From a virus: a stretch of DNA of 64,000 nucleotides. Every line of letters starts with the position of its first letter. The stretch's first letter is position 1. The notes beneath the pieces are model-generated. The model saw nothing but the letters and a program-made list of their open reading frames with translations, searched no databases and was not told the DNA's origin. Location: positions 6,090 through 70,089 of IMG/VR virus record IMGVR_UViG_3300018422_000003. The stretch is one strand, 5' to 3'. The position numbers were made by a program, and so were the translations under genes. Of this stretch, positions 2 through 64,000 are shown piece by piece.

Positions 2-1132
2 GAATTCCATCGCTACCGCCAGGAGTACATCGACCACTTGGTGGAGGCGGGCGAGATTCAGGATCACGCCTTCATCGGCCACTGGCTGGACACCAATGCC
101 GTAATGCCGGAAACGCGCGAGCTGATTCTCGGCGACCGCCATTACTCCATCGATCCGAAGTACGTCGTCGGCTGCGAGCTTTTTCTCTCCGCCGACGAGA
201 ACTTCCGCCCGCTCGAAATGCTGCAGGGGCGTCCGCCCGGTCAGCTCAGCGCCGATCCGCGCTGCCTCTGCTCGGGGACGATTGATTTGCTCCAAATGAA
301 GGGCAGGGAAGCGACGATTACCGACTGGAAATCCGGGTGGGCGACGGCGGGCGTGGCGGATCACGAGCCGTATATTTACGCCGCGCTCGTAATGGCGCAT
401 TTTAAGCAGGTCGACACGGTTAATTATCGGTGGGAGTTTCCGCGCGTCAATGCGGAAAAGGACGGCGGCCGTTACACGCGCGAGGACTTACCCTGGATTC
501 AATCGTTTATCCGGGGCGAGAACACGCGCGAGGCCGGGCTGCGCGCCAAGCATGCGGCCGGGGACCAGATGCGCGTCGATCCGTACGCGGGGCTGTGCGT
601 GTTCTGTCAGCTTCAGTGTCCGCTGCGGCAGACCGCAACGAATGAGCGGCTGATCCTGCCGCCGATTCAAAATCGTGTGGATGCCGAGCAGGTTGCCAAG
701 CTGCTCTATGCGTCGAGCATGATTGCCGCGATGGCGCGGCAGGCGCTGCGGCCGTACCTCGAACAATGGGGGCCGAAGCTCAAGCTCGCCGAGGATTATG
801 AGCTGGAGCTGCGGACCACGGCGCGGGCCGAATATCCGCTGCCCGATACGCTCGCGCTGCTCGGGATCGTGATCGATGAGGACGCTCTGCCCAAGGCGCA
901 GAAAGGGATCAAGCGCGGGCAGGCCATCACGCCGCGATGGGACGTGCCGATTCAATCGCTGCTGATCAGCGCCAGTAAATTACATAATTTGTCGGACACG
1001 AAAATGCGCGCCGGAATGCGGGACGAATTAGGAGCGATCGCGCGCCGGAAAGTGGTAAGCAAAGTCCATGTGCGCAAGCTCAACGAGGAAGACCGCTTGC
1101 TGATTGAAGAAGGCGCGGAGGGGATGGATTAA
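2..1132 (+). CDS. PD-(D/E)XK nuclease (Cas4/RecB-like exonuclease), 5' end outside window
   Basis: GTIDLL...ITDWKSG nuclease motif, Y-x-A helix, CxxC-x3-CP cluster; frame open from base 2. Confidence 0.8.
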   Translation, partial: EFHRYRQEYIDHLVEAGEIQDHAFIGHWLDTNAVMPETRELILGDRHYSIDPKYVVGCELFLSADENFRPLEMLQGRPPGQLSADPRCLCSGTIDLLQMKGREATITDWKSGWATAGVADHEPYIYAALVMAHFKQVDTVNYRWEFPRVNAEKDGGRYTREDLPWIQSFIRGENTREAGLRAKHAAGDQMRVDPYAGLCVFCQLQCPLRQTATNERLILPPIQNRVDAEQVAKLLYASSMIAAMARQALRPYLEQWGPKLKLAEDYELELRTTARAEYPLPDTLALLGIVIDEDALPKAQKGIKRGQAITPRWDVPIQSLLISASKLHNLSDTKMRAGMRDELGAIARRKVVSKVHVRKLNEEDRLLIEEGAEGMD

Positions 1133-1182
1133 AAAAAGTGTAAGATGAGGCGGGTAATAACCATGCGGTTCTTTACCGTCAT

Positions 1183-1221
1183 AAAAACGAAACCGCCGAA
1201 GTGCATCGAACACTTCGGCGG
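1183..1221 (-). terminator. Intrinsic terminator on the minus strand upstream of rep
   Basis: 11-bp perfect stem CCGCCGAAGTG/CACTTCGGCGG, 7-nt loop, TTTCGTTTTT tail on minus strand. Confidence 0.6.
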
Positions 1222-1361
1222 CAGAGCTTCTTTTCACGATGTACGGATGTCTCCGGGCGGCTTCCCGCTCCCGAGCGACTTTTGTAGTATGCCATATTTC
1301 CGGTGACTATGAGAATCCGCACCTAGCAGTTTTTTTTTGAAATTCTGCTCGGGGACATTCG

Positions 1362-2552
1362 TTGAACTGGTCGGCCGCGATCTGCGCAGGTGTAGCGGCA
1401 GCGGTTAGGGACGATCCTCCTGGGGAGGGAGATCACCCGAGCCCGCTGCTAGGGGAATCGTGGCCCACCAAAAATGGGGAGACTCCACGATATGTTTTCC
1501 GGCGAAAGGTGCGCGCCCTCGCGCGTACAGAATCGCATGTTGGCGGGGCCGCAATGTTAGCGGCCCGCCGTTCCGGCGGCGAAGATGCAAGACTCTGCAT
1601 CACGCGGGATGTGGCGGTTTTATGCCGCCATGATCTCCACGCCGCTTTCCTGCTGACCGCCGTCCGGCAACTCACCGAAAAAGGGAAGCTCACCGACGTC
1701 CAGATCACGATCGCTGATCTGGATGAGGCCATGTTCCATACCGTGGGGGAACGGACCATTCGCACCAAGCTGCACTTGCTGGCGCGTTGGGGCTTCCTGT
1801 CGGTGACCGCGCGAAACGGTCATCCGTCACGGCTGACATTCCACGCCGAGGCCGTAGAGGCCGCTTTGTGCGCCGACACGCAAACCCCGGCAAATGTGCC
1901 GCGCTCAACCCCGGCAAATGTGCCGGGGTCCGGTCAAAGCCCGGCAGATTTACTAGGGTCCTGCCAGTACCCCGGCAAAAGTGCCGCGGTTGATTTGCCG
2001 TGGTCGGTTTTGCCGAATCAGCAACTTAGCCCAACCCCGGCAAATGTGCCGCGCCTGTCGTCGAAAGAACTTTTCAGAGACGACAAATCGTCGACAGACG
2101 ACGAACGGAAAACCTTCCCTAAGATGGCGACGAACGGAAACGGAAACGCCCGCCCGGCAGCGCCCGCTCCTGTACCCGCAGCAGGTTTTTCGGCTGAGCT
2201 GATTGCAGCGGCGCGCTACGAAATCATGCTCGCCATGAGCAAGTGCGGCGAGGACCGCCTGACGCGGACCTACGTGATTGATGACGTGGACGCGGCCATT
2301 GCCCTTGCCGTGCTGCGTGCGGGGCCGTGGGAGGCGTCGCAGGCGCTGATTAAGGAGTTAGCCGCGCGCGGCACGCTGAAGGTCAGCACGCCCGCTTATT
2401 TCGCGGACGTCACGTGGCAGCGGTTCCGGCGGGACAAGACAGGCTGGAGGCGCAAGCAGCCCGGTCAGGCCTTCGCCTCACGCAGCAATGATGAGTCCGT
2501 TGATTTCAGCGCCGCCTTGGGCGCGCTGACTTCGGCCAGGAGGATGAGGTAA
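1362..2552 (+). CDS. Phage replication initiator (winged-helix N-terminus; true start may be ATG 1554)
   Basis: wHTH-like segment (ITIADLDE...GERTIRTKLHLLARWGFLSV), then a low-complexity linker carrying DNA iterons as in lambda O-type initiators. Confidence 0.7.
   Translation: MNWSAAICAGVAAAVRDDPPGEGDHPSPLLGESWPTKNGETPRYVFRRKVRALARTESHVGGAAMLAARRSGGEDARLCITRDVAVLCRHDLHAAFLLTAVRQLTEKGKLTDVQITIADLDEAMFHTVGERTIRTKLHLLARWGFLSVTARNGHPSRLTFHAEAVEAALCADTQTPANVPRSTPANVPGSGQSPADLLGSCQYPGKSAAVDLPWSVLPNQQLSPTPANVPRLSSKELFRDDKSSTDDERKTFPKMATNGNGNARPAAPAPVPAAGFSAELIAAARYEIMLAMSKCGEDRLTRTYVIDDVDAAIALAVLRAGPWEASQALIKELAARGTLKVSTPAYFADVTWQRFRRDKTGWRRKQPGQAFASRSNDESVDFSAALGALTSARRMR
1883..2051. repeat. Iteron-like 19-bp repeats (probable origin)
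   Basis: AACCCCGGCAAATGTGCCG at 1883, 1907, 2033; variant at 1968; internal dyad CGGCA-N4-TGCCG. Confidence 0.8.
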
Positions 2553-4659: not shown

Positions 4660-5114
4660 CCAAACTAGAACGGGATCGCGCCAGGCGCAAACGGCAAAGA
4701 GAAGCCAAAGCGGCCGCCGCCCTCATTGCCGCAGGCGGTACGCATGTGAGCGGCGACGGAGAGCCGGTCGTGGCGGGCACCGCGAACCGCGCGGCCGATA
4801 CGGTTATCGCAACAACGAAGAAGCGGACCAGCGGCGGGCAAAAGAAACCGCGCGGCCGACCCTCCGGTACGGGGACGCGGCCCGGCGCCGTGATGACATC
4901 CGAGCCGGTCCATGAGCCGCTGCACGCTGGGTACAACCAAGCGCAAAGCTTCGGGATCGGGCTGCCCGAATTCCTCTTCCGCGCCACGCCGTGGGACGGG
5001 CAGGAGCTGCTCGAAACGTACGAGAACAGGATCCTCAGCAACGTGCAGGAGGCGATCGGCGGGTATATCCGCTATGCCGCTTCGATGCGCCGCGCGCAGG
5101 CCAACTATCACTAA
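4656..5114 (+). CDS. Basic protein with AT-hook-like KPRGRP motif
   Basis: TTGA overlap, AAGGAG SD, followed by terminator. Confidence 0.65.
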   Translation: MTKLERDRARRKRQREAKAAAALIAAGGTHVSGDGEPVVAGTANRAADTVIATTKKRTSGGQKKPRGRPSGTGTRPGAVMTSEPVHEPLHAGYNQAQSFGIGLPEFLFRATPWDGQELLETYENRILSNVQEAIGGYIRYAASMRRAQANYH

Positions 5115-5130
5115 TCCTTTTACCGGGATT

Positions 5131-5180
5131 AAAAAACAAAGGGCCGCCTCGGGGGAAACCGGGCGGCCCTTTTTGTTTTG
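5131..5180. terminator. Bidirectional intrinsic terminator
   Basis: AAACAAAGGGCCGCC...GGCGGCCCTTTTTGTTTT. Confidence 0.85.
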
Positions 5181-5278
5181 GGGGGAAATGGACACGGTAC
5201 GGGCGCCCTGATCGCGAGCCGTTACGGGTGTCCAATATTCTCGGCGAAAGTGAGCAATATCAATGACTTAGGATCATC

Positions 5279-5306
5279 GTTTTCGATAACGGGTGTTATG
5301 TCAACT
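5279..5306 (+). other. dif: dif-like XerC/XerD recombination site
   Basis: GTTTTCGATAA-CGGGTG-TTATGTCAACT: 11-6-11 layout with conserved ATAA/TTAT core; intergenic. Confidence 0.75.
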
Positions 5307-5579
5307 CGCGCGGGAATTCTTCCCGTAAGCCGCTGAGCGGATTCTATTACCCGGTTTTATTCCCGCCCTGCCCGGCGGAAGCATCGGCGCGCGATCAGGA
5401 CACGAGGCAGGCGCCGGTTTCCCATCGGTCCGCTACAGACTCGAGAAACAGGGAGCGCAGCGCCCACCCGCGAAGGCCTAATCCGAAGGCCCAGAGTCGG
5501 GGGACTCCAGCGAAAGAATAACAGGTTTTCCCGCTTTGCGCGAATGAAAACCTTATGAATTCAAAAGGGTTTACGCGCC

Positions 5580-6020
5580 GTGCCACTGCGAATTACTGAC
5601 CAGCAATTCGCCCTCTTCGAAGCCGCCCGGGCCGCGCCTCCAAAAGCCAAACGGCCGCGCCCTTTCCGCCTCACCGCCGGCCAGGCGCAGCTCAGCGAGA
5701 ACGATGTTGAGGCGCAGATCGTCGGCTTCCTGAAAATCCACGGTTGGCGCGTAGACCGCCAGCACGTCGGCCGCGCCAAATGGCCTGCGGGCGGCTGGCT
5801 GCAGCTACATCCGGAAGGAACCGCCGATTGGTTTGCTCACCGTCCGCGCACGAGCCCATCGTGTCTTTACGTCGAGGTCAAGGCGCCCGGACAGCGCGCC
5901 AGCCGTGAGCAGGAGTTGTACCTGGAGATGGCCCGCCTCGGCGGATATTTGGCGGGCTGCTTTGATTCGTTTCCCGCCTTTCACGCCTTCTATCAAAGGC
6001 ATTTTCCCGGCGAAGCTTAG
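5580..6020 (+). CDS. VRR-NUC domain nuclease
   Basis: SENDVEAQI...GTADW...YVEVKAPGQRASREQ motifs. Confidence 0.85.
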   Translation: MPLRITDQQFALFEAARAAPPKAKRPRPFRLTAGQAQLSENDVEAQIVGFLKIHGWRVDRQHVGRAKWPAGGWLQLHPEGTADWFAHRPRTSPSCLYVEVKAPGQRASREQELYLEMARLGGYLAGCFDSFPAFHAFYQRHFPGEA

Positions 6021-7457: not shown

Positions 7458-8092
7458 TGCGCCGCCTTGGGTCCGAGCGCCGCCTCAAGGTCAGCTCGCG
7501 GAATCCGCGGATCGCGGGAGTTCCCGAAGTTTCGGATCGTACCGCTTTTGATCAGCCTGCGCAAACCCTTGGCATCGAGCCCGCTGCGCTCGATCGATTC
7601 GCCGAGCGTGAGCGTGAGCCGCTCGGCGGGAGGAGGCAGCGCCTTCTGTTGTTGCTGATGCATGCCGGAGGCGATGTGCTCCAACGCTCGCGCAAAGACC
7701 TCGGCGATTTGCTGCTGCCCGGCCGCGACGGCCTGCAGCGCCTGCGCCAGATCCGGACCGCCGCCTCCGCCCATCCGGTCCGCGACAGCGGCGCCGATCG
7801 CCTGACCGATCGCCAGCGGGCTGCCGAGCCGCTTGTCGCGCTCGTTGACCTCAGCCGCCCCTTCGGCCCGTTCGAGCGTTTTCGAGCCGCCCTCCATTTC
7901 CTCTTTCATCTTCAGGATGAACCGGGGATCGTAAACAGGAATTGGTTTCCGCCGGGGGACGGATCGGTACTCAACGCGGAGCTTGCCCTCCGCGACCCAG
8001 CGGTTAATCGTCTTTCCCGAGCGGCTGAGCATTTGCGCGGCCTCGGGTTTGGTCGGCCATTCAGACACGTCGACCACATTACGTTTTGTCAT
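7454..8092 (-). CDS. Double HTH (Xis/MerR-like) DNA-binding protein, candidate regulator
   Basis: N-terminal TKPEAAQMLSRSGKTINRWVAEGKL and C-terminal LTLGESIERSGL...LRRLIKSG...RIPRADLE, helical linker; divergent from operator. Confidence 0.75.
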   Translation of the reverse strand: MTKRNVVDVSEWPTKPEAAQMLSRSGKTINRWVAEGKLRVEYRSVPRRKPIPVYDPRFILKMKEEMEGGSKTLERAEGAAEVNERDKRLGSPLAIGQAIGAAVADRMGGGGGPDLAQALQAVAAGQQQIAEVFARALEHIASGMHQQQQKALPPPAERLTLTLGESIERSGLDAKGLRRLIKSGTIRNFGNSRDPRIPRADLEAALGPKAAQ

Positions 8093-8165
8093 TTAGGTTG
8101 TAGCGGACCTCGCTTGCCATTATGCACGCGTGCGCCGACCGCGTCCAGATAATGTCTCTTTGTCC

Positions 8166-8194
8166 TTGACAGATTTACGTAATTCTGTCAAAGT
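8166..8194 (+). promoter_or_regulatory. Early promoter/operator copy 1
   Basis: TTGACAGATTTACGTAATTCTGTCAA palindrome; TTGACA-17-CAAAGT. Confidence 0.8.
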
Positions 8195-8204
8195 ACTCGT
8201 ATAG

Positions 8205-8387
8205 ATGGCACGGTATACAAAACAGCAAATCGAAACCGCCGGAATGAACGGCGAGCTAATCAGCCGCGGCGAGGAAATCACCGACGCGCCCGCCGCCGAA
8301 ACATGGTGCGCGACCTGCCAGCAATGGCATGACAACAGCGGTCACACCGCCCGGTTTCGCCGCGCCGCCGTCAAGGAGGTTGCATAA
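8205..8387 (+). CDS. Small early protein
   Basis: First ORF after promoter; CxxC. Confidence 0.6.
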   Translation: MARYTKQQIETAGMNGELISRGEEITDAPAAETWCATCQQWHDNSGHTARFRRAAVKEVA

Positions 8388-63000: not shown

Positions 63001-63131
63001 ACCTTTTTTTGTTTCGGGGGAGGAGGAGCTTGCTTGGTATCGAGCCGGAAGCCAATCACGAGCAGGCGGTCGGACACTTCCGCCAGGCGCGCCAGGCTAA
63101 GCCGCTTATCCGGCGAGCGCAATGTCGCCAT
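62997..63131 (-). CDS. Small basic protein
   Basis: Overlaps both flanking MTase genes. Confidence 0.4.
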   Translation of the reverse strand: MATLRSPDKRLSLARLAEVSDRLLVIGFRLDTKQAPPPPKQKKV

Positions 63132-64000
63132 ACGTCCGGCCGTCCCCTTCGAGCGTTGCGTGGAGGCCGGTGAAATTCTGCCACCGTTTGACGATGACGT
63201 CGACGTACTTTGCATCCAGCTCGATGAGCCGGGCGGTGCGGTCCGTCTTCTCGCACGCAATCATCGTTGAGCCCGAGCCGCCGAATAGATCGAGCACGGT
63301 ATCGCCCAGCTTGGTGCTGTTCTCGATCGCGCGAACGATCAGCTTAACGGGCTTCTGCGTCGGGTGAACATACTTGCCGCCGGTGTCCGATTCCGACTTC
63401 TCGTAGCATTCGGCTGCGATTTCAATGATGGTCGTTTGCTTGCGATCGCCTTCCCATACATGCGCCTCGCCTTCTTTCCATCCGTAGAGGATCGGCTCGT
63501 GCATCCAGTGATAATCGGCGCGGCCGAATACGAGCGTCGATTTTTTCCAGATCAGGCAGCTCTGTAGCTTCCAGGGCTGCGCAATATACGCATTGCGGAA
63601 ATGGTGGCCTTCGGTATCGGCGTGGCAGATATAGATCGGCCGCCCGGCTTTTAGGACCATATTTGCGGAGGTGTAAACGTCATCGAGAAACTGCCGGAAT
63701 TGCTCCGGTGTTTTCTTGTCGTTTTTGATTTTCCCGAGCTTTCCCGCGCCGAGACGGTCCGCGCTGAAGCTGCAGGCGCGCTCTTCGGGATCGTAATCGA
63801 CGTTATAGGGCGGATCGGTAAACAGCATGTCCGCCTGACCGCCATTCATCAGGCGCTCGACATCGGTCAGAACGGTCGAATCTCCGCACGTCAAACGGTG
63901 GCGGCCGAGAATCCATACATCGCCGGGCTTGCTGATCGGATCGACGGTCGCCGGCGGTACGGCATCTTCGTCGGTTTGCTCGGCGGGCGGCAGTACCTCA
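63106..64000 (-). CDS. DNA amino-methyltransferase (beta class N6A/N4C), 5' end outside window
   Basis: GRHRLTCGDS, FTDPPYNV, HPTQKP, DLFGGSGST. Confidence 0.92.
   Translation of the reverse strand, partial: EVLPPAEQTDEDAVPPATVDPISKPGDVWILGRHRLTCGDSTVLTDVERLMNGGQADMLFTDPPYNVDYDPEERACSFSADRLGAGKLGKIKNDKKTPEQFRQFLDDVYTSANMVLKAGRPIYICHADTEGHHFRNAYIAQPWKLQSCLIWKKSTLVFGRADYHWMHEPILYGWKEGEAHVWEGDRKQTTIIEIAAECYEKSESDTGGKYVHPTQKPVKLIVRAIENSTKLGDTVLDLFGGSGSTMIACEKTDRTARLIELDAKYVDVIVKRWQNFTGLHATLEGDGRTYGDIALAG

Follow-up and report, generated by a model that had tools for sequence, protein, structure and literature searches.

Does a 28-nt element that resembles a bacterial dif site serve the host recombinases XerC and XerD in a phage that carries no recombinase gene? 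The window, i.e., the whole stretch of 64,000 nucleotides analyzed here, covers bases 6090 to 70089 of a 70,089-bp virus record that is rated 100% complete (CheckV 100). For the circularity check proposed in the earlier note, which had been made from the letters of the window, the contig ends were seen to overlap by approximately 67 bp with a few mismatches. A gene for a ParB_N/N6_N4 DNA methyltransferase spans the two overlapping contig ends (record 1-543 and window 63106-63999, both on the minus strand), and this fits a circularly permuted, headful-packaged genome. As far as can be predicted from sequence, this is a siphovirus-like, tailed, headful-packaging soil phage of about 70 kb.

The 11-6-11 site noticed previously in the noncoding gap 5115-5579 was found again at 5279-5306 on the plus strand, as the 28-mer GTTTTCGATAA-CGGGTG-TTATGTCAACT, and it occurs once in the window even when 3 mismatches are allowed (Table 1). 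A dif-type site is defined, in the available text of PMC5357621, as two 11-bp arms with a partial dyad (inner ATAA/TTAT) around a 6-bp center. The phage 28-mer has the same build, and its XerD-type arm agrees with the conserved pattern TTATGTnAAnT. The motif AATATCAATGACTTAG upstream of the site and the imperfect palindrome were likewise recovered. The sequence ATAA-N6-TTAT has a single occurrence in the 70-kb genome, the site at 5279-5306; the idea of a pdif module was dropped because the genome has no second site. A second, degenerate site at 5214-5241 was also rejected, its arms matching at only 4/11 and 4/11 positions.

Table 1. Features in and around the dif-like site (window coordinates)
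Feature	Position	Strand	Remarks
Upstream gene, 152 aa	4656..5114	+	No family match; GC3 0.78
Bidirectional intrinsic terminator	5131..5179	.	18-nt arms, T-runs on both strands; ends the upstream operon
Sigma-70-like promoter match TTGATA-18-AATATT	5234..5263	-	1 found versus 0.3 expected
Motif AATATCAATGACTTAG	5256..5271		Upstream of the site
XerC-type arm GTTTTCGATAA	5279..5289	+	Inner 7 nt TCGATAA as in dif of Micromonosporaceae and Solirubrobacterales
Central region CGGGTG, 6 nt, G-rich	5290..5295	+	Unlike the usual TGTACA, TGCACA, TCTATG
XerD-type arm TTATGTCAACT	5296..5306	+	As in the dif/dif-like arm of Actinoplanes SE50/110 and Sorangium cellulosum
Imperfect palindrome	5547..5572	.	88% complementary (5548-5572 in the earlier note); just upstream of the next gene's start
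Downstream gene, 146 aa, PD-(D/E)xK nuclease	5580..6020	+	Weak VRR-NUC match
HTH_17 excisionase-type protein, 212 aa	7454..8092	-	PF12728 E 7e-9; phrog_66; 2.2 kb from the site

The site had been compared with E. coli dif, and this yardstick failed. The arms of the phage site match E. coli dif, as quoted in the earlier note, at 15 of 22 positions, which is the top score in the genome, with five other places scoring 14; a score of at least 15/22 was reached in 315 of 500 block shuffles, i.e., at chance level, and the comparison with E. coli dif is therefore no evidence. The bare ATAA-N6-TTAT core turned up in 11% of shuffles. We then used ATAA-N6-TTATGTNAANT, the 13-position core common to the E. 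coli, Actinoplanes, and Sorangium dif sites in the literature, which was observed once against an expectation of 1-2e-4 in this genome, and the 18-nt form TCGATAA-N6-TTATGTCAACT, for which the expectation is approximately 2e-7; both figures derive from the genome's own composition (global, or in 200- and 500-nt blocks) and are optimistic, as promoter-like words are more frequent in AT-rich intergenic DNA than the model assumes. With 18 of 18 positions matching the real dif form of high-GC lineages, the dif-like identity proposed earlier was borne out. It is well supported at the sequence level that the element belongs to the dif family, with a match of nonchance quality, and that it is much closer to the dif of high-GC lineages than to that of E. 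coli.

Two published sites carry the same XerD arm. The putative dif of Actinoplanes sp. SE50/110 is given as CAGGTCGATAATGTATATTATGTCAACT in the accessible part of PMC3364876, and a dif-like site of Sorangium cellulosum as GGATCGCATAAGAAACATTATGTCAACT in that of PMC2650636; the phage arm is identical to both at 11/11 positions, and TCGATAA is also shared with Actinoplanes. The exact 28-mer was absent from a collection of 185,579 species, each represented by a single genome. The form TCGATAA-N6-TTATGTCAACT, matched at 18/18 positions, was found at at least 120 genomic loci, versus approximately 17 expected by chance in 596 Gb. Going by their record titles, Actinomycetota account for 101 of the 120 matches listed (Micromonosporaceae genera, Solirubrobacterales, Thermoleophilaceae, Actinophytocola, and actinobacterial MAGs), and the other 19 are scattered over Burkholderia (3), Caballeronia, Chlorobi (3), Acidobacteria (2), Myxococcales, and others, including a "Deltaproteobacteria" MAG, a Binatia MAG, and single loci of further groups. 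In all five single-chromosome assemblies considered, the site lies 41 to 49% of the circle (shorter arc) from dnaA, which is where dif is expected.

The center sets the phage site apart. The commonest centers among the matches listed are TCTATG, TGTACA, TGCACA, TGCATG, and TGTGTC, and CGGGTG is the center of none of these 120 loci, the best agreement being 4/6 with GGAGTG in the Binatia MAG. The TG beside the XerD arm is also present in the TGCATG and TCTATG types. The two arms together are identical at 21 of 22 positions to those of Phytohabitans maris and, likewise, to those of a site in the Binatia MAG. The whole XerC arm matches at 10/11 positions in P. maris, a Micromonospora MAG, and a Binatia MAG; this adds little, because the outer 4 nt of the XerC arm vary among genomes.

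Individual lineages were scanned with a pattern of all 22 arm positions, 3 mismatches at most being tolerated, and with the reversed pattern as a control. Matches were obtained in 12 of 401 genomes from the phylum of Burkholderia latens (control, 9), which is chance level except for a site common to Burkholderia genomes, in 8 of 81 from the phylum of a Myxococcales MAG (control, 2), and in 2 of 81 from the phylum of Phytohabitans, one being the seed genome (control, 1). Those from the Myxococcales phylum resemble real dif, e.g., GCGTCCGATAA-GATGCG-TTATGTCAACT. Five Burkholderia/Caballeronia genomes held 1 to 4 sites each with the pan-dif core, 12 in total, with no control matches; their XerD arms fit TTATGT[CA]AA[ACG]T, and the exact phage arm is among them, accompanied in Burkholderia and Caballeronia by TTCGATAA or ATCGATAA. 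Outside the 28-mer, no flank similarity was found between the phage locus and the 120 listed bacterial dif loci.

Several observations on such sites elsewhere were made along the way. The Binatia soil MAG has five dif-like sites, three of which have approximately 90 nt of conserved upstream flank in common; the centers of these three are G-rich (GGAGTG, GGGGCG, and GGTGCG) and the closest to that of the phage, and the sites may be the ends of a Xer-dependent mobile element family. Eight loci in Thermoleophilaceae, Solirubrobacterales, and related MAGs combine canonical arms with GC-rich centers (CCGCCG, CCACCG, GGTCCG, TGGTGG, and GGTGGG). In Caballeronia sp. LZ065 and Burkholderia sp. BCC0044, dif-like sites with the phage XerD arm lie in low-GC, mobile-DNA regions. 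The former lies between remnants of P2-type gpU and gpD tail genes and a RES-domain gene; a whole prophage was considered there and dropped, the tail genes being a remnant only. The latter has genes for MqsA-like and HTH_3-Peptidase_M78 regulators, an rve transposase, and H-NS as neighbors. Six other IMG/VR contigs (GC 42 to 68%, up to 64 kb), unrelated to this phage, also carry TCGATAA-N6-TTATGTCAACT, with no integrase found within 2 kb of it. Phage-borne dif-like sites may thus be commoner than thought.

The site lies within a 465-nt gap, with the terminator on one side and the VRR-NUC-like gene on the other. This is the largest noncoding gap of the recombination module (RecT, exonuclease, and the VRR-NUC-like protein), and attP of phage lambda has a comparable position. 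Both flanks are phage genes, as stated in the earlier note, and one contig of a single sequencing run bridges the site. The downstream nuclease has a D...ExK motif, and its VRR-NUC match (PF08774, E 0.0012, below the cutoff) is found in 3 of 4 homologs. About 100 nt of AT-rich DNA separates the terminator from the XerC arm, and the local GC content is 43% compared with 61% for the genome. In this segment, the promoter match at 5263-5234 faces the terminator, overlaps AATATCAATGACTTAG, and lies 15 nt from the site. The sequence ACGGGTGT, which runs across the arm-center junction, is repeated 65 nt upstream at 5224. The minus strand of 5125-5270 folds with a z score of -4.8, largely due to the terminator; the plus strand of 5300-5580 gave no sign of structure (z +0.45), and an Rfam search of 5000-5700 returned subthreshold, terminator-driven matches only. 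The promoter match, the minus-strand fold, and the ACGGGTGT repeat keep a regulatory reading of this segment alive. A small-RNA unit of approximately 95 nt could be assembled on the minus strand of 5131-5263 from the TTGATA-18-AATATT match, a hairpin at 5190-5235, a C-rich linker, and the bidirectional terminator, with subthreshold Rfam matches to RcsR1, ftsZ-DE, and mmgR.

We surveyed the gene content by Pfam and PHROG scans of approximately 100 open reading frames. The virion and lysis genes encode a P22-type coat protein, a portal, a large and a small terminase, a tape measure protein of 1119 aa, a DUF2460 tail protein, and a GH24 lysozyme; the recombination and nuclease genes encode RecT, an exonuclease, an SbcC-like ATPase, and an HNH endonuclease; and the regulators comprise a sigma-70-family protein together with HTH_17 and HTH_23 proteins. 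The sigma-70-family protein has regions 2 and 4 (record 868-1797, minus strand), and a tblastn search of 50,697 phage records (E 1e-5) yielded no match to it. The statement that the phage has no visible integrase holds for the complete 70,089-bp contig, as six-frame searches at E<=1 returned no Phage_integrase (PF00589), Resolvase (PF00239), or rve (PF00665) domain, and with them neither a tyrosine or serine recombinase nor a DDE transposase. A search of the same scope and threshold yielded no match to the Xer activation factor XafT (DUF3653). The suggested check for parA in the rest of the contig came out negative. No ParA-like AAA_31 domain was found in the six-frame search of the whole contig, the sole ParB_N domain being the one fused to the DNA methyltransferase, and the Pfam/PHROG scans recognized no repressor or lysogeny gene, plasmid replication initiator, or partition gene. 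By inference only, the HTH_17 protein is a candidate accessory factor. The divergent intergenic region between its gene and a plus-strand operon of small genes (8092-8205) may be a regulatory switch.

The hallmark proteins matched phage database entries at 21 to 31% identity, all of them phages of Gram-negative hosts. The terminase matched 895 phage records (best, 31%; cyanophages, Stenotrophomonas phages, and enterobacterial phages), the portal 31 (Rhizobium, Pseudomonas, Stenotrophomonas, Xanthomonas, Nitratiruptor, Variovorax, and Tunturiibacter phages), and the capsid 41, all Vibrio siphoviruses of approximately 76 kb (<=29.7%). Among plasmids, the capsid matched only three from Leptospira, which are plasmid prophages (27 to 28%), and a protein atlas returned viral clusters only. 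Capsid homologs were present in 0 of 151 genomes from the phylum of the Myxococcales MAG, in 0 of 121 from the class of Solirubrobacterales, and, weakly (E 4e-9), in 1 of 301 from the phylum of Burkholderia; no prophage relative was seen among these sampled genomes of three lineages.

Three homologs of the downstream nuclease, at approximately 60% identity and on contigs of 1.2 to 2.1 kb, were all that a search of 5.8 billion proteins yielded. Two distant relatives, IMG/VR loci whose nuclease is 36 to 46% identical, show nothing dif-like in the flanks that were fetched. The upstream gene, a 396-aa gene, and RecT recovered 0 viral-contig relatives each, and the one capsid relative among viral contigs covers structural genes only. 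Metagenome contigs gave 0 relatives in the nuclease alignment and 0 matches to a 24-mer of the site. The region is held by one soil DNA metagenome run, probably its source, with no RNA holder listed; a 23.7-kb contig of that run bridges the site, and no loose ends or joints at 5279-5306 were found in it, which, for contigs of the same sample, is not evidence of absence. The relatives split at the site for which the earlier note had called did not turn up in the genomes of the three lineages or in metagenome contigs, and neither did an integrated copy or a hybrid dif junction, the sampling being thin.

We estimate at roughly 0.5 the probability that host XerC and XerD genuinely use the 28-bp element of this recombinase-less phage as a substrate, a judgment made on sequence comparisons. 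It is supported by the 18/18 match to the dif form, the location of such sites roughly opposite dnaA, and the published identical XerD arms, as well as by the lack of a recombinase gene on the complete contig and the position in the recombination-module gap. Counted against it are the missing sign of lysogeny, the phage sigma factor, the missing XafT, the lack of prophage relatives, the absence of the exact 28-mer from the genome collection and of the 24-mer from metagenome contigs, the two distant relatives without the site, the center found in none of the 120 loci among the matches listed, and the adjoining promoter-like match. The capsid, portal, and terminase, in addition, resemble those of phages of Gram-negative hosts only, but the best-populated lineages with matching dif are Actinomycetota.

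If the element is such a substrate, the phage genome would circularize first, after which host XerC and XerD, each bound to its arm, would carry out strand exchange over the 6-bp center. [quoted passage not shown] The resolution of multimers of a circular plasmid-like form, in the manner of cer and psi, is less likely and seems improbable to us, and some other employment of Xer or FtsK takes up what little remains of the estimate. That a temperate tailed phage without an integrase lysogenizes by Xer insertion of the whole 70 kb at the host dif is doubtful. Dimer resolution and integration by the phage site, the two roles suggested in the earlier note, remain inferences.

The strongest competitor, clearly less probable than a Xer substrate, is that the likeness is a coincidence. 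The AT-rich segment 5230-5310 would then be a promoter or operator, for the downstream VRR-NUC operon and/or the minus-strand small RNA, and the ATAAC-N4-GTTAT dyad would bind a phage or host regulator and not Xer. The sigma-70-like minus-strand match, with 15 nt between it and the site, a perfect TTGACA inside the XerD arm on the same strand, the upstream ACGGGTGT repeat, and the low local GC content are all in keeping with such a segment, as are the two distant relatives without the site and the lytic look of the gene content. However, TTGACA has poor -10 partners, and no further copy of the motif exists in the genome, though it would be expected of a phage operator or promoter family. Such a coincidence would also have to produce 18/18 and 13/13 matches to the dif form and the pan-dif core, for which the expectations of 2e-7 and 1-2e-4 already include the local composition.

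Alternatively, the site may be a relic or passenger, a dif copy taken from a host chromosome or a mobile element and having no present function in the phage. We consider this unlikely, although the site is an orphan found in no known relative and dif regions are hot spots for mobile DNA, as illustrated by the Burkholderia sp. BCC0044 and Caballeronia sites among IS, toxin-antitoxin, and phage-remnant genes and by the five sites of the Binatia MAG. The likeness to bacterial dif loci ends at the 28-mer, and the center is unlike that of every chromosomal dif among the matches listed; moreover, an unselected 28-mer would decay, but all conserved positions are intact. Very unlikely is a role in lytic infection in which host XerCD or FtsK would be drawn to the site or titrated by it (e.g., disturbing chromosome segregation), with no phage recombination product. 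It would account for a genuine-looking site within a lytic-type genome, but one site per genome makes for poor titration, and no precedent was found in the literature searched.

In the literature searched, the viruses documented to exploit Xer are filamentous phages, satellites, and double jelly-roll phages. A functional site in this phage would add the Caudoviricetes to them, and insertion of the whole genome at dif would make this the first IMEX that is a tailed phage, and one larger than any known so far. A missing integrase would then not mean a lytic phage, and integrase-based lifestyle prediction would misclassify such phages; the arms of a dif-like attP would also offer a sequence handle for predicting the hosts of orphan soil phages. 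Should the site prove nonfunctional, the case still shows that E. coli dif alone is uninformative and that a lineage-matched dif is needed.

No tailed phage relying on host Xer was found in the literature searched, which is no proof of absence in print. As described in the available parts of PMC5357621 and PMC12715192, IMEXs comprise filamentous phages and double jelly-roll vibriophages, together with the TLC satellite and with islands, one of which is the 57-kb gonococcal genetic island (GGI), and the integration of IMEX phages depends on host XerCD. Those of Vibrio and Xanthomonas (CTXphi, VGJphi, the TLCphi satellite, and dif-type double jelly-roll vibriophages) resemble the phage analyzed here in having no integrase of their own; their attP is one dif-like site, in which XerC and XerD arms enclose a 6- to 7-bp center that differs from the host dif. 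However, they are filamentous or nontailed and of approximately 5 to 15 kb, several with XafT or RstR by attP, whereas the present phage is tailed, has 70 kb, and is without DUF3653, which is present in only some IMEX classes, and no integrated copy of the phage was found. Closer in size is the GGI, whose 57 kb is called unusually long and which uses a degenerate dif copy and host XerCD (PMC5357621, in the part available).

The GGI is a genomic island and not a virus, and its divergence lies in the XerD arm, whereas that of the phage site lies in the center, with both arms canonical. In cer and psi, as in the phage site, a Xer core is found on an extrachromosomal circle with a center unlike that of dif. 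Both work only with approximately 180 to 200 bp of accessory sequence, to which ArgR/PepA or ArcA binds. The phage differs from the replicons that carry them in having no recognized plasmid replication or partition genes. Circular plasmid prophages (P1 with Cre/lox, and those of Bacillus, Clostridium, and Vibrio) are tailed phages as well, and as prophages they have to resolve dimers. They usually encode their own Cre/Xer-like tyrosine recombinase and ParA/ParM, as stated in the available part of PMC8026635, whereas this phage encodes neither. The dif sites of Micromonosporaceae, Solirubrobacterales, and Myxococcota share with the phage site an identical XerD arm, the inner XerC arm, and the 11-6-11 layout; they are chromosomal, opposite oriC, and usually have TGTACA, TGCACA, or TCTATG as their center, whereas the phage site combines these arms with CGGGTG and is found in a virus.
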